A stretch of 46,012 nucleotides of DNA from Desulfobacterales bacterium (GCA_029940035.1 JAOZRT010000006.1:1-46012), one strand, 5' to 3'; shown: positions 3,133-16,382, counted from the first letter of the stretch. Numbers and translations: made by a program. Notes: generated by a model from the sequence alone, not told the origin.

Positions 3133-4050
3133 CTATCCAGCTCCTCCGGCAGCAGCCTTGGAAATCTGGTATTGAATCAAATGCTCGGCACGATCCTCCA
3201 GGGGGATGCCCACGATCTGGCGGATCAGAGCTTCTATAAATGCGGTTTGGCCATTGTAAATACCGAACACGCCCTCCTGGATGTCAGCATTCTCGAAGTC
3301 AAAGGGCTGCTGGAGGGCCAGCACGTAAACAGCCTCCTTGGCAATGGTTTTGTCCGGCGGAGTGTAGACCTTGAGGACAATGCCTTTTTGACGATCTCCG
3401 GCATCAGGTATGGTGTAAGCTTTATTGGATTCCAGGAAGTTGTTGGTTCGGTACTGGTTGGGGATCAGTTTGAGGACCTTCTGGTCTTCAAGCAGAATGA
3501 AAATGCAGTAAAAGCAATCCTTAGTAGTCTTTAGGCTGATCTCCATCTCCTGGCCATTGTTGAAATTCGTCCTGTTCAAGGCGGCTTCAATTTGAAAGGA
3601 GGGGTCGTGACTCTCAAACTTTTCCACCACCCCCACTTTCATTTTGATTCTGTACATGGGTGATGAATCGTTTTGCCCCCCGGACTGGCCACCATCGTTT
3701 TCCTCGATGATTTCGCTTTCAACAATTTTTGCGTAGGGGATGGCCCCGATCATGGACCCCGACAATTTAAGGTTGACCAGCAAAGTTTCCATGGAGATAT
3801 TCACCACCACAGCTTCTTCAATGGCTTTCCACTCGGCAATTTCGATGGCCGCTTCCCTGGCTTGCTCCACATTGTCATCAACAATGGGCGCTGCAGCCTC
3901 CACCGTGACCCAGGTGATGTCCTGTGTGGCGGCTGTATGGCCCGGCAGCATGAGGAAAACGATCATTACCGCCAGAAAATGTGGCATGCATGCATGGCGT
4001 ACGATCAACAACCGGTTCGCTGTCAGGTTTGTGTGTCTGAAATCAGGCAT
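3133..4050 (-). CDS. Exported protein with an LPP20/FlgT_N-like N-terminal domain and a C-terminal DUF4384-like domain
   Basis: 305-aa ORF, 20 nt downstream of the caspase gene. The signal-like segment is FLAVMIVFLMLPGHTAA (an alternative ATG is at 3987). The C-terminal stretch GQEMEISLKTTKDCFYCIFILLEDQKVLKLIPNQ...AYTIPD...EAVYVLALQQP fits the DUF4384 pattern as I remember it; that domain is often associated with caspase-domain proteins. Confidence 0.8.
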   Translation of the reverse strand: MPDFRHTNLTANRLLIVRHACMPHFLAVMIVFLMLPGHTAATQDITWVTVEAAAPIVDDNVEQAREAAIEIAEWKAIEEAVVVNISMETLLVNLKLSGSMIGAIPYAKIVESEIIEENDGGQSGGQNDSSPMYRIKMKVGVVEKFESHDPSFQIEAALNRTNFNNGQEMEISLKTTKDCFYCIFILLEDQKVLKLIPNQYRTNNFLESNKAYTIPDAGDRQKGIVLKVYTPPDKTIAKEAVYVLALQQPFDFENADIQEGVFGIYNGQTAFIEALIRQIVGIPLEDRAEHLIQYQISKAAAGGAG

Positions 4051-4070
4051 CGCTTCAATTTCCGGATAGC

Positions 4071-5342
4071 CTATTGGCTGATAACACGGCCGATAGCCAT
4101 GTCCCGCAAATTATCTATCGGCGGGTTGATGCTTGGCACCTGTTCGGCTCCCATCCGGCGCGCCACCCTGGGAACATGCATGGCGATATAGTCAAACATC
4201 TCCTTGACACTGACCCATTGATCTTCGTCCTTGTCCGCCTCCCCTTTGAGTCCCTTGAGCATATAATAGGTGAACAAGCCGTGTTCGGCATCGGGGTAGG
4301 CATTGCTCGTTTGCCCCTGGGAGGCAGCACTGAAGGCGATGACATTGTCGTTCTTGAGTTTTATGTCCTGCACATGCATCAAAGCGGGTCGTATTCCCTC
4401 AGCTAACATATCTGCTGCACGGGATGCCACCCCGCTGAAACACGAATCCAGGAAGACATAGGTCTGCCGCAGGTTCATCTTTTCGAGATCCTGGTATAGT
4501 TTTTGGAGCTTGTAGCCGGTCTGCTCGATAAAGCGAATATCGCCGTCATAGGGAACCAGGTAGGGGTCGCCCTTTTTCATACCCGGCGCACCATGGCCGG
4601 CGAAGTACACATACAGAGTCGTTCCTTTGCTGGTGTTGGCTGGGATATAACTTTCGAGATAACCCTCGATTTGGCCTTTGGTGGCCTCGCTATCGATGAG
4701 GGTAACAACATTCTCTTCTGGCACGCCCAGCACCTTGATGAAGTATTCCCGGATGATCAGGGCGTCCTTCCGGGCATAATCGACACTCGGCAGGTGTGCA
4801 TAATCTTGTACGCCGATCACCAGCCCCCAGTCCTGGAGGAGCGGTTTGGTGGCAATTTCAGGGCCTAACTCCAGGGTGTCGGTGAGGGAGGCCAGCATAA
4901 AGGTTTCAGAGTCCGCCATCTCGTCGTTGACAAAGACCTTGACGCTCCATTGGCCAGGCATATTGGCGGCATTGTCCCCTTTGACCATGATGCTGTGCCA
5001 TGCGGTGGCCTTCTTCATGTATTTGCCCTTAGAGATTTTCAAAGGGAATTCATCGGTGGTATGATAGAGATTTCCCTGGGGGTCATACCACTCCCACCTG
5101 AGATTGTGAACGCCGGATAGATTTTCAAATTTCAGATGGGCCACGATCTCTTCATCCGTGGTGGAGAATTCATTGGTGGGTTGCCTGGGTATGGCCTCAT
5201 TTGCCTGCCGCTCGACGCTTTTAGCCATGGTCAAGCCATGGTACTTCAAGGGCGGCTTTTTTTGTACTTGTTTTGATGAACTGCATGAAAAAATGAATAG
5301 AACGACTAAAACAAAGACTAATGCTTTTGGGGAAAAATTCAT
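4071..5342 (-). CDS. Exported peptidase C14 (caspase/orthocaspase-like) protein with an N-terminal beta-rich domain
   Basis: The catalytic dyad motifs are intact: YVYFAGHG (His) and VFLDSCFSG (Cys). The ORF track starts it at 5405, but the ATG at 5342 is preceded by GAGGTG (6 nt spacer) and gives a signal peptide, MNFSPKALVFVLVVLFIFSCSSSK (possible lipoprotein Cys). Confidence 0.9.
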   Translation of the reverse strand: MNFSPKALVFVLVVLFIFSCSSSKQVQKKPPLKYHGLTMAKSVERQANEAIPRQPTNEFSTTDEEIVAHLKFENLSGVHNLRWEWYDPQGNLYHTTDEFPLKISKGKYMKKATAWHSIMVKGDNAANMPGQWSVKVFVNDEMADSETFMLASLTDTLELGPEIATKPLLQDWGLVIGVQDYAHLPSVDYARKDALIIREYFIKVLGVPEENVVTLIDSEATKGQIEGYLESYIPANTSKGTTLYVYFAGHGAPGMKKGDPYLVPYDGDIRFIEQTGYKLQKLYQDLEKMNLRQTYVFLDSCFSGVASRAADMLAEGIRPALMHVQDIKLKNDNVIAFSAASQGQTSNAYPDAEHGLFTYYMLKGLKGEADKDEDQWVSVKEMFDYIAMHVPRVARRMGAEQVPSINPPIDNLRDMAIGRVISQ

Positions 5343-6224
5343 GATACACCTCGCAAGGATTGAGGATAGAGAACATTTTTGAAGTGGTTTAAAATTCCGG
5401 TTCACCCCCCGATCACGGTGCTACGGGTTCTAAAAAATACTCACATGCACTGTTGCATCCTTTCCTTTTTATTGGTGTACACCCAATACTTGGGTGTGAC
5501 CTGAAGTTTTAATCTGCTTCTTGTGATGGTACTGTATATGTATGAATAAAGTTGTATTTAGGATCAACGTTTTCGGCTGTTGGCTGATACAAACAGGATA
5601 TTCGCCTGGATGCTGATGATATTGCTTCGCCAAATCCTTAATATTTATCCATATTAAATCACAGGAGCAGTCGGGAGTCAAGTAAAAACCCAATCGGCAA
5701 ACCCATGACCTGATGCCGGATGCCCTATTTGGCCTAAGACAGGGCAAATTATCATCTAATCTCCTAAAATCGCTCAATTTTAATAGTGTTTGAGGCAAAA
5801 TGTCTTTACAGTGATCAATCTTAAAAGATAGCGCACGGCAAATCATGTTTCGGAACGTGATTTTGCCAAACGCTATAAGCTGAACACCGTAGGCTGAGTC
5901 AGGGTATTGAAATCCTGGGAGGTCAGGGCTTAAAAGAGAGAAAAGAGATATAGTTGGAGAGAAATGTCATTCAACCCAGGTTTAAGGTTGACCCAAAAAA
6001 TTCAGCGCGTTATATGAAATGAATCCACCTACAGAATGAATCTATAAAGCAAAAAATGAATTTTAATCATCGATCGAATTAGATAATCCATAGCTGCCTT
6101 TTGGGGTTTGCATTTTCAGGGTTTCAAGATGAAAGAACATCTTTCTTTACTTCCCTTCTATACAGACTGTCGATTGTTCAGCTACATTTTAACATTTTGA
6201 TTAGTATATGAAAAGGAATAGGAA

Positions 6225-7010
6225 ATGAAAAAAATATGGATAACCTCGATGGACTCTGCAAAGGACAAGATTTCCCAGTTAGCTGCTGTTGTGCAAAAAT
6301 TCGGGCTGGCCATGGAAGGGCATATCTGGGAGGATGACAACAAAAAGATGCCTTGGATTCAGGTTAGGGATGCGGTTACGCATTCCGACATCGGTCTCTG
6401 GGCAATTGTTGCTTCAGGTGAAGATCTGGCCAGTGCATCCATCACCTATGGCTTGTCCATGCTGGCTGTGATTGTGCAGGCGGAACGGGGAAAGGGTTTA
6501 CCCATAGTCATCCTCCAGGCCGGGGGGGAGCCAATTACCCCTGCGGCGCTGCCAACGCCCTTCCAAGATGTAGATTTGTTTTCCCTGGAAGATTCAGGTC
6601 TGGGGGCAAAGTTGGTGGCCAGAATGCATGGCACCCATAAGGCCATGGTTTCGGAATATCTTCTGAACATTCACGGCAATGACCAGGTGGGGCAATGGTT
6701 CGAGCTGAGACCACAGCATAAATCCTGGTCAGGGGTAATTTTTGGTGTTACAGGGGCTGAAATAGCCTTTCAGGCGGTGGGCCCCCAGGGAAAGCTGCCG
6801 GAAAAATCAACTTTAGAATACCCTGTCCAGGGCATTCAACTCGGCCTGGGGGGGAAAGAGGTGGTGGCGTGGTCTGTGCGGAATGTTCTTGATGCACAAA
6901 CCTCATACTATGTGAAAGTTGAGGGAAGCCCGGATACCATTATATTCGGCCCTTATGCCGAAGGGCAGGAGACGGATCTCTTTGTAGTCAAATTATTGGC
7001 GACAGCATAG
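6225..7010 (+). CDS. Hypothetical protein (261 aa): an alpha/beta N-terminal half followed by a beta-rich C-terminal half
   Basis: Clean ORF with GGAATAGGAA upstream of the ATG. The N-terminus KIWITSMDSAKDKISQLAAVVQKFGLAMEGHIWEDD...DIGLWAIVAS has the strand-helix-strand spacing seen in TIR-like/flavodoxin-like folds, but I see no catalytic Glu. This is a pattern-level impression only. Confidence 0.7.
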   Translation: MKKIWITSMDSAKDKISQLAAVVQKFGLAMEGHIWEDDNKKMPWIQVRDAVTHSDIGLWAIVASGEDLASASITYGLSMLAVIVQAERGKGLPIVILQAGGEPITPAALPTPFQDVDLFSLEDSGLGAKLVARMHGTHKAMVSEYLLNIHGNDQVGQWFELRPQHKSWSGVIFGVTGAEIAFQAVGPQGKLPEKSTLEYPVQGIQLGLGGKEVVAWSVRNVLDAQTSYYVKVEGSPDTIIFGPYAEGQETDLFVVKLLATA

Positions 7011-7216
7011 AAAAGAAATAGACACAAAAACATGAAATTTTAAAATCAAGCGCCATAGAATTGGCAAATCGCACTTTTGTGATTTTGTACCATGTGCCCC
7101 TCTCCGTTCATCCCGGTTGACTTTCGGTGCACAATACGGTATTTAACATCAACAGTTTATTGAGTATTTGAACAAATACTATCAATCCTCAAACCATCGA
7201 AAACGGGGCACAAACC

Positions 7217-7987
7217 ATGGCAGACCTAGAAATCGCTCGCAAGGATTTGGATAACCAACAGTTCATGAATTTGAGGCAGAGCACGGAAAAAATCGTAAGT
7301 ATCCTGGGTAAACGCCTCAAATCGCACCTGGATGTGTTAAAGCCGATCTTCATGCCCCGCAAACTTCTGGGGACCTTTGTCAAAAGTGCGCTGAAGGATG
7401 AAATAATCGGTTCGAACAAGGCCTTTGCGGAACTGCAGAAATGCTATGCCGCGGTATGCGAAAAGCCTTTTGGCTTGCCCAAAAAGCTGCAGGCGCCCCT
7501 GGCACCCATATCCGGCCAGCTGGATGCAGTGCCGTTCAAATATTCAATTTTACTGGGAGAATCCAAAGACAAGCCCATCACTGTTACGGCAGCATCGCGA
7601 TGGATCGTGTCCTACCGTAGCGAATGCCCCTTCAGCCGTTTAAAAGCCATGATCGCTGGAGATGAAACCCGTCAGACAGAGGATATGAAACAGTCGCTCA
7701 TCGATCACCTGGCCCTGGTGGTATTCCTGAAAAAGTTTCCGGCCCTGGGGCAGCTGTTGAATGACCTGAGGTATGATGTGGAGGTCGTTAAATTGGATGA
7801 TCTTGGTGGGTTGCCAGTAGTGACCCTGAAGGCATCCATCAGCACCTTTTTACCACCCAACGACTTTATCCTACAGGTTACTCAGCTTTCCGGCATTCCC
7901 GCTTTTCAGGAGATCATCGACATGGAAGCGCTGGAAATTATTCCCGACCCCCTCAAAAACGAATTGCTGGTGGCAATAGAGAAATAG
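7217..7987 (+). CDS. Hypothetical protein (256 aa); no recognisable family
   Basis: Clean ORF 206 nt downstream of the previous gene and convergent with the sheath-like gene. No signal peptide or TM segment is evident. Confidence 0.7.
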   Translation: MADLEIARKDLDNQQFMNLRQSTEKIVSILGKRLKSHLDVLKPIFMPRKLLGTFVKSALKDEIIGSNKAFAELQKCYAAVCEKPFGLPKKLQAPLAPISGQLDAVPFKYSILLGESKDKPITVTAASRWIVSYRSECPFSRLKAMIAGDETRQTEDMKQSLIDHLALVVFLKKFPALGQLLNDLRYDVEVVKLDDLGGLPVVTLKASISTFLPPNDFILQVTQLSGIPAFQEIIDMEALEIIPDPLKNELLVAIEK

Positions 7988-8115
7988 CCTGCCAAGTGTT
8001 CAGCCACGCTTGCTTTATCGGTTCTCGGAATTTTATCCGCCTTCGCAGAAGACCATGGGTATGCCCGTGGATCCATGCGATGAAGATAAAAGGGCTGGTA
8101 ACGAAGTCGGTGGCC

Positions 8116-9693
8116 CTAGATAACGAGGTCCCAGGCAAGGGTAAGTTCCATTGCCTTACTGGTGGTCAGAACGGCCTGGGAGGGATTGATTTTCAATGTT
8201 ATTGGTACGCGGTGGTTTGCATCGAGCCGGCCCAGGGAAATACTCACCGCATCAGCAACTGGTTCGAGGCTGTTTCCTAAAAAGCGGGTTAGGGCATCCT
8301 GGATCCAGGCTTCCGGCTGCCGGACCTTAAGATCGATTCCCCTTTTTTCCTGCAAATACAGCAAAAACCGGATGACTCCCGACAGGTATAGCTGGTGGCC
8401 AAGGGATATGCCCCCGAGGGTGGTTTCACCGGAAGCAAAGGCAAAATCCTTGCCCTTCATTCCCATCAGCGGGGTGATTCCCGACCTAAAAAGCTGATCG
8501 GCCCGGTCCCTGCTGAAAACCGTTTCCGTGGCGCATTGCCCGTGGGCATCCGCATGCAAGGCCAGGTCTTCTACCTGGAATCGATCTTTATGGGTAAAGC
8601 GGGTGGGCCAGCCATTTTTTAGAAGCCCCTGCACGATCAAATCGGCCAGCCCCCACACAGGGGCCGCCCAAGGAAGGCGACCCTCTTCATAGGAAAAGAC
8701 ACGCGGCGTGTTCTGGGGGCCATAGGGATAACGCAGAAGAAAACGATTGCAGGTGACAGCCAGCCAATCGGAATTGCCGTTCTGTTTCAGTGATTGCCAT
8801 TTTGCATAAGGTGCTTCTTTAAGAAAGTGAGGCAGGAATGGGCGCTTGGACATTTCTTCCCAGGTGTCGAGATTGAAAAAGGCCGGTGACAACCACACCA
8901 GGGCTGGCGTCATGAGGGTTGCCGCAAATTCGGCAATGGCTTTCAGCAAGATTTGACTTCGGGTTGTGTTGTCCAGGGGCAGGTCCACCAGGATAAGTGC
9001 GGGCAGGTCCGTTGCCATATCCGGCAGGAGGTCTTGCAGGGTCTGCTGTAAAGTTTCGTGGGACACATGCGCAATGTTCACTCGTATCTTTGAGTCACTG
9101 CGCACGGATTTCAGCAGTCGATGCAATCCGCGCCAGGACGCTTCCGAAGTTGTAAAGGGTTGGTGGTGGAAAATGGCATCCAGTGTTTTCTGGAGGATGC
9201 CCTCTATCAGATCTTTGCCGCGAATTTCCTGGATTGAAGAGTCTGCAGGCCCGTCTGGAAGAGCTACCATGTCCAGTATGTTTTCTATTTTCCTCGATAT
9301 ACGAAAAGGCCTTTTGGGGCCCTGGTCCACCGCTATCTGCGGCAGGTCGGGCCATTGGTCCAGACCCTTGCGGATTTCAGCCGCTGATATTCCGGATGAC
9401 TGGGATTGATCCAGATACCTTTTAGCTTCCAAGAGATGCTTAAGAAAGGGCAGGTTCTTGACCATTGCGTCCGGGTGAAAGTCTTTGATCCTGGAGCAAG
9501 AAACATTCATTCCTCCCTGGGGGCAGAGCTCTTGGGGCAGGGGCACGTAGGTGTTTAGACCGAAGGCAGCCATTACCTGGTTCAGTTCTGCCGGATCCAC
9601 ATGAACCGGCATTGCGCCGGGAAAGGATTTGTCGGAAAAACCAAAGGGCGCCAGGGCTAGTATTTTATACAATAGTGAACCTTTGGGTATCAT
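8116..9693 (-). CDS. Fused TssB-TssC (VipA-VipB-like) contractile-sheath family protein in one 525-aa polypeptide
   Basis: Residues ~8-93 are TssB-like: YKILALAPFG, VHVDPAELNQVMAAF, SRIKDFHPDAMVKNLPFLKHLLEAKRYL. Residues ~165-525 are TssC-like: IFHHQPFTTSEASWRGL, PALILVDLPL...AATLMTPAL, NRFLLRYPYG, FSYEEG, FSRDRADQLFRSGITPL, LSGVIRFLLYLQ. The comparisons are to VipA/VipB motifs recalled from memory. The start ATG overlaps the stop of the upstream FHA gene (ATGA at 9690-9693). Confidence 0.85.
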   Translation of the reverse strand: MIPKGSLLYKILALAPFGFSDKSFPGAMPVHVDPAELNQVMAAFGLNTYVPLPQELCPQGGMNVSCSRIKDFHPDAMVKNLPFLKHLLEAKRYLDQSQSSGISAAEIRKGLDQWPDLPQIAVDQGPKRPFRISRKIENILDMVALPDGPADSSIQEIRGKDLIEGILQKTLDAIFHHQPFTTSEASWRGLHRLLKSVRSDSKIRVNIAHVSHETLQQTLQDLLPDMATDLPALILVDLPLDNTTRSQILLKAIAEFAATLMTPALVWLSPAFFNLDTWEEMSKRPFLPHFLKEAPYAKWQSLKQNGNSDWLAVTCNRFLLRYPYGPQNTPRVFSYEEGRLPWAAPVWGLADLIVQGLLKNGWPTRFTHKDRFQVEDLALHADAHGQCATETVFSRDRADQLFRSGITPLMGMKGKDFAFASGETTLGGISLGHQLYLSGVIRFLLYLQEKRGIDLKVRQPEAWIQDALTRFLGNSLEPVADAVSISLGRLDANHRVPITLKINPSQAVLTTSKAMELTLAWDLVI

Positions 9694-10619
9694 TTTGAAA
9701 AGAACTTACTGAACATGGAACCGGATTTTTTTTCTTTTTTCCTGTCGGTTTCCCGGGAGGTTGTATTTTTTTCCTGCATGGCGTCGATTTCTGCCGCAGG
9801 TACAGTACTGGGTTGCTCGATTTCGGCCAGGCGACCCCCGCCGAGAAAGCGAAAAGCAGGGCCATTGTTTCCCAGTGCCAGAACATCTTCTGGTCTCAGG
9901 ACCGCCTCGGTATTGATGGGCGCACCGTGAATCGATATGGACTGTCTGCCGGTCAGGTCCTTTATACAGTATTGATCGTTGTCAAAATAGATTTGCGCGT
10001 GCTTGGTTGCAACCGAAGCGTGGTTGAGCACGAAATCACAGTCAGCGTCCGTGCCGATAACGATGGGCAGTGTATTGAATGACTGTAGGGTTGGCCCGTA
10101 CTGGATCACCAATGGCACCTTGACTTTTTGCGGTGTGGGGCCACTGCCGGGCGGTTGTAGACCGCCTGTCCGAGGGATGGGCTTTACACCTGAAGATGGC
10201 GGTTGCTGCGATGCGCGCGGCTCCGGAGACAAGGGCTTTGGGGAGGGCGGTGGCGGTGGTGATGACGCCATAACCGGCGGTGAAGCAGCTATATTGTCAT
10301 CCACCCGCGTGAGAAAGCTTACCTTGGGACCACCTTCGGCAAACATGATCACGTCACCGTCCTTTAGGTAGGCTTCGCCGATGCTTTTTCCGTTCAGGAA
10401 AGTTCCATTGGCACTTTTATCCTCCACCCGGAAACGGTTTCCCTCTCGAATGATGGTGGCATGTTGGCGGGAAATGATGGTCAGGTCTTCAGGGAATCGA
10501 ACCTGGCAGGTGGAAAGCCTACCCACTGCGATTTCAGGTTCGGTGAATTCCTGGATGTCACCCTTGAGCGGACCGGCAATATGTACCAGTTGGACAATAA
10601 TGGTAGGTAGGGACGGCAT
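9690..10619 (-). CDS. Double FHA-domain protein with a Pro-rich linker and a basic C-terminal tail
   Basis: FHA 1: IAVGRLSTCQVRFPEDLTIISRQHATIIREGNRFRVEDKSANGTFLNG. Linker: SPPPPPSPKPLSPEP. FHA 2: IVIGTDADCDFVLNHASVATKHAQIYFDNDQYCIKDLTGRQSISIHG. Translationally coupled to the sheath-like gene. Confidence 0.9.
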   Translation of the reverse strand: MPSLPTIIVQLVHIAGPLKGDIQEFTEPEIAVGRLSTCQVRFPEDLTIISRQHATIIREGNRFRVEDKSANGTFLNGKSIGEAYLKDGDVIMFAEGGPKVSFLTRVDDNIAASPPVMASSPPPPPSPKPLSPEPRASQQPPSSGVKPIPRTGGLQPPGSGPTPQKVKVPLVIQYGPTLQSFNTLPIVIGTDADCDFVLNHASVATKHAQIYFDNDQYCIKDLTGRQSISIHGAPINTEAVLRPEDVLALGNNGPAFRFLGGGRLAEIEQPSTVPAAEIDAMQEKNTTSRETDRKKEKKSGSMFSKFFSK

Positions 10620-10743
10620 GTCTTTTTGTTACGGCAAGAGGTGGCGGAGTGTCAAGGGTTTAATTGCAGCATGCTCGGCTTGTATACTGGCTGACACAGC
10701 TGTGAAAATGACAAGCTGCAAACAGCTGCCCAGGAGAACTTCC

Positions 10744-10772
10744 TTGACAACAGACTGGTATCATAATAAATT
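10744..10772 (+). promoter_or_regulatory. Candidate sigma70-type promoter for the PP2C-kinase operon
   Basis: TTGACA at 10744-10749, a 17-nt spacer, then TAAATT at 10767-10772, about 60 nt upstream of the ATG at 10834. It lies in the 214-bp divergent intergenic region. Motif match only. Confidence 0.3.
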
Positions 10773-10833
10773 TAACATTCACCCTCGGTGTCTGGATTTA
10801 GGTTTATATAAACCCTTTGGGAAACCGGAACCA

Positions 10834-11565
10834 ATGAACATGATACATTATTATGGGAAGACAGATGTTGGTCTGGTGCGTCAAAACAATGAAGATACCT
10901 ATGCCCTAGATTCGGCGCGCGGCTTTTGTCTGGTGGCTGACGGCATGGGGGGTATGGCTGGAGGTGAGTTGGCCAGCCAAATGTTTGCAGAGGCTGCCAA
11001 GGGTATCTTTGCTTCCGGCAGTCTGGCTACGGAGAAAGACCGGATAGAGACGGTGCAGCAGATATTTTGGTATGCCAATAACAGCATTCTGAAGCATGTG
11101 GAGAACAATTCCCATCTCAAGGGAATGGGGTGTACCGCGGAACTGATCGTGTTCAGCGAGAATAGGTTCGTCATCGGGCATATGGGTGACAGCCGCACCT
11201 ATCAGTTGAGAAATGGTCAACTCAAGCAGCTCACCAAGGATCATTCCTTGGTCCAAGAACAACTTGACCAGGGACTCATCTCCGATCCCCAGGCTGTTGT
11301 GCATTCCATGCGCAATGTTATCTTGCGGGCGGTGGGGGTGGAAGAGGACCTGCAGCTAGATATTATCAGAGGGAATATTCAAGCTGGAGATCACTACCTG
11401 CTCTGTTCGGACGGTTTGACTGATATGGTTCAGAATGGTGAAATCGAAAACATTTTATCATCAGGCATGAGCCTTGCCGAGAAAGTGGATCAGCTAATTG
11501 CCGAGGCCCTCTCCGCCGGCGGGAAAGACAATGTAACCGTTGTTGCTGTGATGGTGGATTCATGA
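10834..11565 (+). CDS. PP2C-family Ser/Thr protein phosphatase
   Basis: MNMIHYYGKTDVGLVRQNNEDTYAL..., VADGMGG, MGCTA, GDSRTY, LLCSDGL, GGKDNVTVV. The ORF-track start at 10381 overlaps the FHA gene on the opposite strand, so I use the internal ATG at 10834. The stop overlaps the kinase start (ATGA). Confidence 0.9.
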   Translation: MNMIHYYGKTDVGLVRQNNEDTYALDSARGFCLVADGMGGMAGGELASQMFAEAAKGIFASGSLATEKDRIETVQQIFWYANNSILKHVENNSHLKGMGCTAELIVFSENRFVIGHMGDSRTYQLRNGQLKQLTKDHSLVQEQLDQGLISDPQAVVHSMRNVILRAVGVEEDLQLDIIRGNIQAGDHYLLCSDGLTDMVQNGEIENILSSGMSLAEKVDQLIAEALSAGGKDNVTVVAVMVDS

Positions 11566-13043
11566 TGCAGTATGGAAGATACCGAATAGAAAAAGAGCTG
11601 GGTAAGGGGAACATGGGGGTAGTCTATCAGGCCGTTGATCCCCAGATAGAGAGATTGGTAGCCTTGAAGGTCCTGCGTGAGGACCGGATGGTCAGTGAAG
11701 ACTTTGTCATGCGCTTCGTAAAGGAGGCCAAGGCCATAGGACGGCTCTCTCATCCCAACATTGTGACAGTGTATGATGTCGGTCAGGACAACGACACCAT
11801 CTATATTGCCATGGAATATCTGGAAGGGCGGCCCTTTGACGAAGTGATCCGCGGCAGCAGGCTGGAGCTCGAAAAGATTTTGGATATCGGTATACAGGTA
11901 GCAGAAACCCTGGATTATGCGCATAAAAAGAAAATTGTTCATCGGGATATCAAACCCTCCAACATGATCCTGAGCGAAGAGGGCCGGGTCAAACTGACCG
12001 ATTTCGGCATTGCTCGTATCGAAGATCCCTTGGTCATGCAACAGACGCAGGCCGGTGAAATACTGGGTACGCCCGTTTATATGCCGCCGGAACAGGCTAT
12101 GGGTACACCCATCGACGGTAGAGCTGACCTCTACTCGCTGGGCGTTATTCTATATGAACTGATCGTCGGCAGGCGCCCTTTTGATGGCAGTAACATCACA
12201 GCCATATTAAGATCCATCATTCAGGACACCCCCGAATCGCCTTCCCAGGTTGATCCGTTTATCCCCCAGGGCATTTCAGATTTGATCATGAAGTGTCTTT
12301 CCAGGAATCCGGAAGATCGGTTCCAGACAGGTGCTGAGCTGGCCACGGCGCTCAAGAATGCGACCAGGAAGGAACAGCAGGAGGCCATCGTCCCGGAAAA
12401 TAAGCCGGGCATATCGACCAAATTTCTGGGTGTCTGGCTGGCCCTGGGCATCATTGCACTGGTAGGCACAGGAGTTGGATGGTATCTTCTCAAGGGCGGA
12501 GCGGAGTCTCCGGTCAGTGGTGTGGTCAAGGATGTCAAAACCTTGGATGAGGCGCACACATCCAAGACACCATCTGCTATACCGTCGACAGCGAAGGAAG
12601 ATCCGTCCGGGATCATTGATCAAGGGCCAGTGACGGATCTTGAGACGGCCACAGGGGCGGAGGGGACAACAGTCCTGGAGCAACCTAATGCTGAATCTCC
12701 GATTGCAATTGGGGAGGAAGCCACCGGTGCTGAAGCGGGAGCGTCAGGAGAGGAACAAATTGTTAGTGAAACAACGGATACGCGCGACCAGACAGCCGAT
12801 AAATCAGCCCAGCCTGACATGTCTGCGTTAAGCACGAGCCTGATAATTGAGAGCAAGCCGGCCGGCGCCCAGGTATTTATTGAAAATAGCATGAAAGGGC
12901 TGACGCCCTTGAATCTGGAGCTGCCCTTTGGCGATTACAATATACGCTTGAGTCTGGCGGATCACTACGAGTGGAAGGCGGACCTGGAGTTGAGTGAAGA
13001 AGGTGAGATCCCCCTGTTTGTCCAAATGGTACCCAGCAATTAG
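11562..13043 (+). CDS. Hanks-type Ser/Thr protein kinase with one TM helix and a C-terminal extracytoplasmic PEGA-like domain
   Basis: GKGNMGVVY, ALKVL, HRDIKPSNMIL, DFGIAR and GTPVYMPPEQ. TM helix FLGVWLALGIIALVGTGVGWYLL. C-terminus SLIIESKPAGAQVFIENSMKGLTPLNLELPFGDYNIRL (PEGA-like). Confidence 0.92.
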   Translation: MMQYGRYRIEKELGKGNMGVVYQAVDPQIERLVALKVLREDRMVSEDFVMRFVKEAKAIGRLSHPNIVTVYDVGQDNDTIYIAMEYLEGRPFDEVIRGSRLELEKILDIGIQVAETLDYAHKKKIVHRDIKPSNMILSEEGRVKLTDFGIARIEDPLVMQQTQAGEILGTPVYMPPEQAMGTPIDGRADLYSLGVILYELIVGRRPFDGSNITAILRSIIQDTPESPSQVDPFIPQGISDLIMKCLSRNPEDRFQTGAELATALKNATRKEQQEAIVPENKPGISTKFLGVWLALGIIALVGTGVGWYLLKGGAESPVSGVVKDVKTLDEAHTSKTPSAIPSTAKEDPSGIIDQGPVTDLETATGAEGTTVLEQPNAESPIAIGEEATGAEAGASGEEQIVSETTDTRDQTADKSAQPDMSALSTSLIIESKPAGAQVFIENSMKGLTPLNLELPFGDYNIRLSLADHYEWKADLELSEEGEIPLFVQMVPSN

Positions 13044-13694
13044 AATAGTGGGCTATTCATTAATTTTCCGTTTGTGCTGTAAAAACCACCAGACCGCTCA
13101 GAACAAGGTCTAAGTTGGGAAATGCCTCGACCCTTGGGTTAGATGAATAAAACAAACACAACTTCCATGCCCAGGTGCAGGAAAAGAGAGGGTAAGGAAC
13201 TGCGGAGTTTGAGGTTGACGTAAATTAGAAACGGCGAACCAAGCCAAATAGTTACGGTTTCCACTTGTCTTCGGTGTTCATCTTTTAACCCTTTGAATCT
13301 TTTTAGCCTGTCACTCCGACCCTTGAACCCTAACTATATATTCGTCAACAAAGGGAACCATCGATTTTGTTTTACATCAACTGGTCGGGAGACGATCCTT
13401 AATTTTTTGTGATGCCTGACAGAATGGCCTGATCAACTGCGTTCGTTGCTCCAATCGGATGTTTTTTATGCTCAACCTGACATGGGGGTGCCAAGCCTTG
13501 GTTTTCATAAGTAAATCTGCCAACTGTTCCAACATGAATTCATGAAAACCCATGAATAAAATGTCGCTTTTTTGATGCAAAAGCTGTTTTCAACAAAACA
13601 TCTCCGATGTATATTCACACCACGAAGTGAAGGATACTGAAAAAATAGATCACAAGAATATTCGCCTTTAAGGGCGCCAAAAGGGAGAGGTCAT

Positions 13695-16382
<2,688 letters not shown>

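Follow-up and report, generated by a model that had tools for sequence, protein, structure and literature searches.

A phosphorylation-type gene module with a fused TssB-TssC sheath paralog in Desulfobacterota

What is the function of a type VI secretion system (T6SS) sheath homologue that is encoded in one operon with an FHA-domain protein, opposite a Ser/Thr phosphatase and a Ser/Thr kinase? This question is raised by a 46-kb stretch of DNA from a Desulfobacterales bacterium (the window, meaning the stretch at its whole length), which encodes a fused TssB-TssC (VipA-VipB) sheath-like protein, a protein with two FHA domains (FHA-FHA), a PP2C phosphatase and a Hanks kinase. An initial annotation regarded the four genes as a self-contained, signal-gated sheath polymerisation system built around an orphan sheath gene. 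The four genes, their coordinates, the ATGA overlaps at 9690-9693 and 11562-11565 and the 214-bp divergent spacer were all present. Comparison with other genomes led us to a different reading, in which the fused protein is most likely an accessory part of a T6SS and not a stand-alone system. With moderate confidence, we regard the locus as a T6SS accessory phospho-module with a sheath paralog as its output, working on the principle of Fha/PppA/PpkA.

Linkage of the fusion gene and position of the module beside T6SS clusters

A one-genome-per-species scan was carried out, which yielded 57 loci, nearly all from metagenome-assembled genomes (MAGs) of Desulfobacterota, and 53 of them were distinct. 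Six-frame open reading frames (ORFs) of the loci were searched with the window proteins, and the denominators given below are the loci with enough flanking sequence; statements about linkage in other genomes rest on these and other separate loci, designated by L numbers. The FHA gene was found directly upstream of the fusion gene, on the same strand, in 39/46 loci. A PP2C gene was present anywhere in the flanks of 27/45 loci, and in 22/45 it diverged from the FHA gene within 2.5 kb. Any Hanks kinase was detected in 24/37 loci and the PEGA-type orthologous kinase in 17/37. Two further window genes, which encode conserved partners of 256 and 261 aa (unk256 and unk261), had a homolog of one or the other in 26/35 loci, and in 21 of the 39 loci with enough downstream flank such a homolog lay ≤1.5 kb downstream of the fusion gene and convergent to it. 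Since the same linkage recurs in ~50 species-level genomes of related sulfate reducers, in which the fusions are 31-47% identical to the window fusion, it is more than chance, as the initial annotation had proposed; linkage in the 53 distinct loci also answers the objection that homologues of the fusion might not be linked to FHA, PP2C or kinase genes elsewhere.

The module was then placed relative to T6SS genes, using cluster proteins of Desulfopila and Ca. Electrothrix as queries. ClpV, VgrG, DUF2169, DUF3540, PAAR-like or TssF/G genes were found within 10 kb in 12 of the 36 loci with ≥8 kb of flank. The cluster of Desulfopila sp. IMCC35008 (L064) starts with ClpV, VgrG, a DUF2169-pentapeptide protein, a 611-aa protein, DUF3540, a PAAR-like protein and FHA-SLT and continues with unk261, unk256, FHA-FHA (on the opposite strand), PP2C, Trypsin_2, the PEGA kinase and CsgG-like proteins, and it contains no fused sheath gene. 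The left half is the same in Ca. Electrothrix, where unk261 and unk256 follow ClpV-VgrG-DUF2169-DUF3540-PAAR. Pfam searches of L043 identified TssF, TssG, ClpV and VgrG, then a HEAT protein, unk261, unk256 and a convergent fusion gene, and L147 carries DUF2169...FHA-SLT, unk261, unk256, the fusion and FHA-FHA. In T6SS clusters of relatives, unk261 usually comes after the PAAR-like gene or is a direct neighbour of VgrG or ClpV (L083, L084, L086, L088, L094). In many relatives, a complete T6SS-i cluster is continued, directly beyond its VgrG/PAAR region, by the conserved core of unk261, unk256, FHA(-FHA), PP2C and PEGA kinase genes.

Metagenomes were scanned from a VgrG alignment, which yielded L068; this locus encodes, in order, TssA, TssB (169 aa), TssC (497 aa), Hcp, TssE, TssF, TssG and ClpV, and then VgrG, DUF2169..., a PAAR-like protein, a methyltransferase, unk261 and unk256. 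Over its last 3261 bp it matches L038 at 100% identity, and L038 goes on with a kinase gene followed by the FHA gene and the fusion gene; canonical TssB and TssC and the fused paralog are thus all encoded within ~32 kb of one contig. Canonical TssC is also encoded upstream of the same type of cluster in L087 and L088. The fusion is a paralog and not the structural sheath, as the L068/L038 cluster encodes separate canonical TssB and TssC, and on the same ground we rejected the fusion as the only sheath of its cluster. Because the module of relatives stands at the end of complete T6SS clusters with their own sheath genes, these results suggest an accessory role and not a stand-alone one, and the earlier idea of a target machinery reduced to a single gene is not supported (L043, L068/L038).

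Presence of the sheath gene itself is variable. L149 has the gene order of the window, including aconitase, with a fusion 85% identical to that of the window. L150 (3553-9162) and L151 (5204-10813) are syntenic to window positions 3133-16382, with 65-78% nucleotide identity, and share the genes for DUF4384, caspase, unk261, unk256, FHA, PP2C, PEGA kinase and aconitase. No sheath gene was found in these two loci: the gap from unk256 to the FHA gene is only 288 bp, and a tblastn search detected nothing. The sheath gene thus shows a presence/absence polymorphism within a module that is otherwise intact. Together with Desulfopila, they point to the kinase, PP2C, FHA, unk256 and unk261 as a stable core and to the fusion as an optional add-on, which when present lies nearly always just downstream of the FHA gene, in the FHA operon. 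The persistence of the module without a sheath gene (L150/L151, L064) argues that the switch is not dedicated to that gene. A self-contained unit of four genes is not supported either, since unk261 and unk256 also belong to it.

Fold, missing connectors and linker motif of the fused protein

Pfam identified a VipA domain at aa 29-110 (PF05591, 1.2e-8) and a VipB N-domain at aa 163-423 (PF05943, 1.7e-35) in the fusion, which scored below the NCBIfam equivalog cut-offs (TIGR03355, 109.9 vs 271.5 bits; TIGR03358, 31.4 vs 97.25). The family profile matched TssB chains in the PDB over residues ~5-108 (2e-11) and TssC chains over ~154-427. An AlphaFold2 (AF2) model, built on 27 homologs, had a mean local confidence (pLDDT) of 78 and a predicted template modelling score (pTM) of 0.82, with residues 125-157 falling below pLDDT 50 as a disordered linker. 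When this model was searched with Foldseek, the first nine matches were all TssC/VipB/IglB chains (2e-17 to 7e-13), among them 5n8n_B (2e-17) and 3j9g (8e-16), with TM scores of 0.6-0.7 normalised to the target. The modelling thus indicates that the fusion has a genuine T6SS sheath fold, the same as that of canonical TssB/TssC (VipA/VipB; 3J9G, 5N8N, 5URW), with both domains recognisable in a single polypeptide that is ~20% identical to the canonical proteins.

Comparison with TssB and TssC of the related clusters L068 and L088 revealed that connecting elements are missing. The fusion begins at the equivalent of canonical TssB residue ~29, so that the conserved N-terminal 'ERVNIVYR' donor strand has no counterpart, and it lacks ~20-30 residues of the TssC N-terminal region, which correspond to the H1 helix. 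In the Pseudomonas aeruginosa sheath structure, the donor strand joining protofilaments within a disc, in a 'handshake', comes from the N-terminus of TssB, the TssC H1 helix packs on the neighbouring heterodimer, and the TssC C-terminal strand is the link within a protofilament (PMC5807055). The AF2 model of the fusion contains C-terminal strands at 483-487, 495-502 and 515-522, and P504 and W521 are invariant in the family. This C-terminus aligned plausibly with that of canonical TssC by eye and gave no match to the Pfam C-terminal model; from the modelled structure, retention of the TssC C-terminal strands is plausible. With these strands kept and the arm and H1 lost, the fusion would be unable to weave a tube alone and could still engage a protofilament. 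The sheath polymerisation proposed initially is not supported in this respect, as the fusion is without the TssB N-terminal arm needed for the tube-forming handshake (PMC5807055).

The inter-domain linker carries a motif that is conserved across homologs. In the form [VIL]DxIL[DKN]MVALP, it was found in 112/120 homologs, with a Ser or Thr always within the 6 preceding residues, and a basic stretch and a Ser/Thr patch lie ahead of it. On this conservation, we consider the motif a candidate docking or phospho-regulated element. It resembles the N-terminal helix of canonical TssC, which reads 'SILDEIVHATKLQP' in L068, and TssC N-terminal helices are ClpV docking sites in other systems (PMC5048182). 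A longer fused form in L124 has the motif with an H1-like helix after it, which supports the motif as a docking helix. Two other readings of this region were tried. Deletion of the ClpV-docking region in the fusion was dropped when the conserved ILDMVALP motif, similar to 'SILDEIVHATKLQP', was found, and an FHA-binding site of constant form, pT-x-x-[IVL], ahead of the motif was rejected, as position -3 is Thr in only 29% of the homologs and Ser/Thr in 52%.

At least 268 fusion homologs were detected at E ≤ 0.001 among 8000 candidates scored. Nearly all of the 120 homologs listed are 509-547 aa long, and >100 share 39 invariant residues at 36-49% identity. Other single-chain VipA-VipB proteins were encountered in an Alteromonadaceae isolate (L062, 9275-10837), a Phycisphaeraceae MAG (L060, 9740-11554) and a gammaproteobacterial MAG (L061, 152-1726). 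The fused protein of L062 ends right after the VipB N-domain, and its gene neighbours encode a TonB receptor, a sulfotransferase, FKBP and YcxB; that of L060 has a peptidase S9 neighbour. No T6SS or FHA/kinase genes were found near these two. A divergent 644-aa form is encoded between ClpV and VgrG in L124 (189-2120), with an ILD..V.LP motif followed by the H1-like helix, and another divergent form is encoded in L077 (11092-12246) immediately after unk261, in the same orientation and without an intervening FHA gene. These five proteins are likewise single-chain TssB-TssC; they belong to different subfamilies, are closer to canonical TssC (1e-30 to 1e-46, vs ~1e-17 for the window fusion) and, unlike the window fusion, showed no FHA, PP2C or kinase neighbours.

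Signalling proteins, conserved partners and neighbouring genes

The FHA-FHA protein gave two FHA matches (9.8e-32). FHA1 is canonical (GR...SRQH...NGT), with the GR, SxxH and NG residues intact and hence, judged by sequence only, the canonical pThr-binding residues, and it is followed by a Pro-rich linker. FHA2 is degenerate in the whole family (GT, no NG) and scores best as Yop-YscD_cpl. The C-terminus of the protein, aa ~293-309 (window 9690-9740), is a basic amphipathic tail (KKEKKSGSMFSKFFSK) that is conserved as K..KGxxxFKKFF in most, not all, homologs and recalls membrane-targeting helices. PP2C was assigned to the Stp1 family (NCBIfam NF033484, 238 bits vs a cut-off of 230), and its DGMGG motif is intact in the sequence. 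The kinase contains a kinase domain at aa 7-255 (Pkinase, 8.6e-57) with intact HRDIKPSN and DFG motifs, followed by a transmembrane segment (aa 288-310), a low-complexity region and an extracytoplasmic PEGA domain at aa 425-489 (1.4e-8).

The two gene pairs overlap by ATGA. On the minus strand, TTTTCAAAATGATACCC holds the FHA stop codon TGA and the sheath ATG (...TTT TCA AAA TGA; ATG ATA CCC), and the FHA-FHA and fusion genes are translationally coupled. On the plus strand, GATTCATGATGCAG holds the PP2C stop codon and the kinase ATG (...TCA TGA / ATG ATG CAG), through which these two genes are coupled. The listed PP2C ORF begins at 10381; its homology-supported start is the ATG at 10834 (MNMIHYYGKTDVGL), which makes the spacer exactly 214 bp. 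Within the spacer, one stretch, TTGACA-17-TAAATT at 10744-10772 (+), fits the sigma70 promoter consensus well and is a putative promoter; agreement with the consensus is no proof of function.

The module was compared with the PpkA-PppA-Fha (TagH) pathway of the P. aeruginosa H1-T6SS and of Agrobacterium tumefaciens. Both comprise a Hanks kinase that is membrane-bound and has an extracytoplasmic sensor domain, together with a PP2C phosphatase and an FHA protein. The operons of the module are likewise divergent, and linkage to T6SS genes was seen in 12/36 related loci and in Desulfopila, though not in the window. Its FHA domain is most similar to that of TagH (TIGR03354, 72.5 bits, below the cut-off of 120.25). 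As the initial annotation had pointed out, the kinase sensor is PEGA, whereas that of PpkA is vWA, and the FHA domain is present twice. The second copy is degenerate, and the long C-terminal region of TagH is lacking. In place of TagF or TagQRST, which were not found here, there are two conserved unknowns and, in relatives, Trypsin_2 and CsgG-like lipoproteins, and the operon partner of the FHA gene is the extra sheath paralog.

The two conserved partners gave no Pfam (E ≤ 10), NCBIfam, PADLOC or PDB profile match by sequence, and the named database entries of their homologs are all annotated as hypothetical. CheX was the sole PDB match to the unknown proteins and was taken as chance (E = 0.34). 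The best-conserved gene of the module is unk256, with 55-67% identity (in A2) across species whose fusions are ~40% identical, and its family comprises 420 representatives at E < 1e-3 in a library of 1.84 billion proteins. One of its relatives, P0462 (544 aa), consists of a Hanks kinase domain and an unk256-like C-terminal domain, which ties unk256 to kinase signalling. The AF2 model of unk261 (pLDDT 92) showed an N-terminal flavodoxin/TIR-like domain and a C-terminal beta-sandwich. Foldseek matches of the N-domain were SPARTA TIR-APAZ (8e-5), PurE and SEFIR, and no catalytic Glu was evident among the invariant residues. An Hcp-like tube was considered for the C-terminal domain and rejected, since Foldseek gave Ig-like and adaptin beta-sandwiches and not Hcp.

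The module also has variable extras, namely Trypsin_2, TPR/CsgG-like lipoproteins, caspase with DUF4384, FHA-SLT and FHA-guanylate cyclase. A Trypsin_2 protease gene lies between PP2C and the PEGA kinase in many relatives (L063, 3318-7936; L064, 13368-20068; similarly in L016, L020, L024, L030, L031, L040, L050 and L051), and after Trypsin_2/kinase come a TPR/AhpC-TSA/CsgG-like lipoprotein gene and further CsgG-like genes. By analogy with TagQRST, the Trypsin_2 and lipoprotein genes may form an envelope-sensing arm; they are absent from the window. FHA-SLT (lytic transglycosylase) and FHA-guanylate/adenylate cyclase proteins are encoded in the same clusters (L064, 8508-9977; L065, 8478-9974; L002, 19285-21605; L148, 10915-11853). 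These extra FHA-domain outputs suggest that several FHA readers depend on a single kinase/phosphatase pair.

Next to the module in the window (Table 1), a caspase gene is paired with a DUF4384 gene (3133-5405, minus strand), and this pair recurs by the module in L001 and L150/L151. A caspase gene was found in 5/53 census loci, plus the syntenic relatives L150/L151. The window caspase has a sub-threshold NCBIfam match to 'caspase, EACC1-associated type', and PADLOC returned only generic kinase, PP2C and caspase domain matches, with none for the fusion, FHA, unk256 or unk261. Between the caspase gene and unk261, ~820 bp (5406-6224) contain no convincing ORF and no Rfam match; the sole ORF there encodes 125 aa on the minus strand (5469-5846). 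Rfam and tRNA scans of the window gave nothing relevant. The remainder of the 46 kb encodes housekeeping functions (aconitase, Mfd, SurA-like proteins, MgtE, RecO, GlyQS, LigA, FtsY, SMC and an ABC transporter).

Table 1. Coordinates of the module and its neighbours in the window
Feature	Position	Strand	Size	Basis or remark
DUF4384 protein, paired with caspase gene	3133-4050	-		Pairing as in L001, L150
Caspase-like protein (Peptidase_C14)	4071-5405	-		Domain match
unk261 (conserved partner)	6225-7010	+	261 aa	Homologs in related loci; AF2 and Foldseek
unk256 (conserved partner)	7217-7987	+	256 aa	Homologs in related loci
Fused TssB-TssC (VipA-VipB) sheath-like paralog	8116-9693	-	525 aa	Pfam, NCBIfam, PDB profile, Foldseek
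Disordered inter-domain linker of the fusion	9223-9321 (aa 125-157)	-		AF2 pLDDT <50
Linker motif IENILDMVALP	9256-9288 (aa 136-146)	-		Conserved across homologs
FHA-FHA protein	9690-10619	-	309 aa	Pfam/NCBIfam
Divergent intergenic region	10620-10833		214 bp	
PP2C Ser/Thr phosphatase, Stp1/IreP type	10834-11565	+	243 aa	NCBIfam NF033484
Hanks Ser/Thr kinase with transmembrane segment and PEGA	11562-13043	+	493 aa	

Proposed mechanism, alternative explanations and implications

We propose that the PEGA kinase would sense an envelope cue and phosphorylate a Thr, either one of its own or one of a partner protein. Besides the kinase, the candidates are the Pro/Ser/Thr-rich linker of the FHA protein and the Ser/Thr patch before the ILDMVALP motif. 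FHA1 would read the phospho-Thr and PP2C would erase the mark, and the FHA protein could thereby hold or release the arm-less sheath-like protein. The latter would be able to accept strands and to donate its C-terminal strand, though not the inter-protofilament strand. Instead of building its own tube, it would engage the real sheath or ClpV and serve there to nucleate, cap or brake, or as an adaptor. Any one of these specific actions (cap, nucleator, brake or adaptor) is considerably less likely than the accessory role as such.

The TagA cap/stopper, TagJ, the TssA cap and the TssE initiator are non-core factors that engage the sheath or ClpV and control assembly, length and recycling. The role proposed for the fusion would, by analogy, be of the same kind, but those factors are without the sheath fold and no sequence relationship to the fusion was found. 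T6SS accessory factors acting on the sheath or ClpV have been reviewed (PMC13584744). Literature searches and a 2026 review of T6SS accessory factors yielded no description of a fused TssB-TssC, unk256 or unk261, nor of a T6SS phosphorylation pathway in Desulfobacterota, and the fusion family is apparently undescribed.

Several observations weigh against a T6SS accessory role. Domain and profile searches found no other T6SS gene within the 46-kb window, Hcp, TssE/F/G/K, ClpV and VgrG genes included; the window module stands apart from any T6SS cluster, and one presumably lies elsewhere in the genome. In 24 of the 36 loci with ≥8 kb of flank, there is no T6SS gene within 10 kb, a count that covers the flanks searched and not whole genomes. 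Fused VipA-VipB proteins also occur in non-T6SS contexts of other phyla (L060, L062). MAFFT puts the linker motif on helix H1 instead, leaving its assignment as a docking helix ambiguous, and we infer the action on the sheath or ClpV from structural elements that the modelled fusion lacks and retains. The window and the 24 loci without T6SS genes, the orphan fused VipA-VipB of Alteromonadaceae and Phycisphaeraceae, and the strong conservation of the family in length and sequence would all agree with autonomous, signal-gated polymerisation of the fused protein alone in the cytoplasm, independent of a T6SS. We consider this unlikely, because the fusion lacks the TssB donor strand and the H1 helix (PMC5807055), no Hcp-like tube partner was found (the beta-domain of unk261 gave no Hcp match), 12/36 loci adjoin T6SS genes with canonical TssB/C also on one contig, and the other module genes also occur where the sheath gene is absent. 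The sheath gene is an orphan within the window, but not in those relatives whose T6SS clusters adjoin the module. At the other extreme, a single-chain TssBC serving as the actual structural sheath of the associated T6SS would suit a protein that has a genuine sheath fold and sits in or by T6SS clusters also encoding ClpV. This is extremely improbable, given the missing donor arm and the separate canonical pair (TssB, 169 aa; TssC, 497 aa) in standard position in the L068/L038 cluster, with L087 and L088 as further cases.

The P. aeruginosa H1 cluster has a divergent fha-sheath/phosphatase-kinase layout, which the window mirrors, and the locus could be the decaying relic of a second H1-like T6SS cluster (fha-tssBC // pppA-ppkA) in which the fused gene has no current function. 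Truncated or frameshifted copies (L049, L050, L054) and the absence of the gene in syntenic relatives point in this direction; the near-constant length (509-547 aa) and 39 invariant residues of >100 homologs, the linker motif kept in 112/120 homologs and the translational coupling to the FHA gene argue against decay and make it very improbable. Alternatively, the locus might serve multicellular or aggregating bacteria as a cell-death or conflict module set off by the kinase, in which the sheath-like protein would be an effector or scaffold along with the caspase and the TIR-like unk261, and T6SS adjacency would be secondary. In its favour are the caspase and DUF4384 genes beside the module (window, L001, L150/L151), the sub-threshold EACC1-associated match of the caspase and the TIR/SEFIR-like N-domain of unk261. 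Such a module is distinctly unlikely, as the caspase occurs in only 5/53 census loci, PADLOC gave no match for the sheath, FHA, unk256 or unk261 proteins, no catalytic Glu is evident among the invariant residues of unk261, and unk261 and unk256 are placed after PAAR-like genes of T6SS clusters. It is quite unlikely, too, that in genomes like this one, with the module set among housekeeping genes, the arm-less sheath protein has left secretion for a phospho-gated intracellular assembly under the envelope-sensing kinase, for instance as single protofilaments or as a scaffold with unk256/unk261 and the caspase. If this were true, the contractile-sheath fold would have been re-used as a regulated cytoplasmic polymer or as a death or differentiation switch, and the same would have happened in parallel to the orphan fused sheath proteins of unrelated phyla.

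How T6SS firing is controlled post-translationally is understood for only a few Proteobacteria. As a T6SS accessory phospho-module, the locus would define a version of such control that is widespread and uncharacterised among Desulfobacterota, to which relatives of cable bacteria belong, with a PEGA sensor, two conserved proteins without known relatives and a second sheath-fold protein co-translated with a double-FHA reader as its new features. If the fusion caps, nucleates or brakes the sheath or diverts ClpV, the T6SS would be regulated in a new way, through a disabled version of its own building block; should the fusion function independently of a T6SS, it would represent a new use of the sheath fold.

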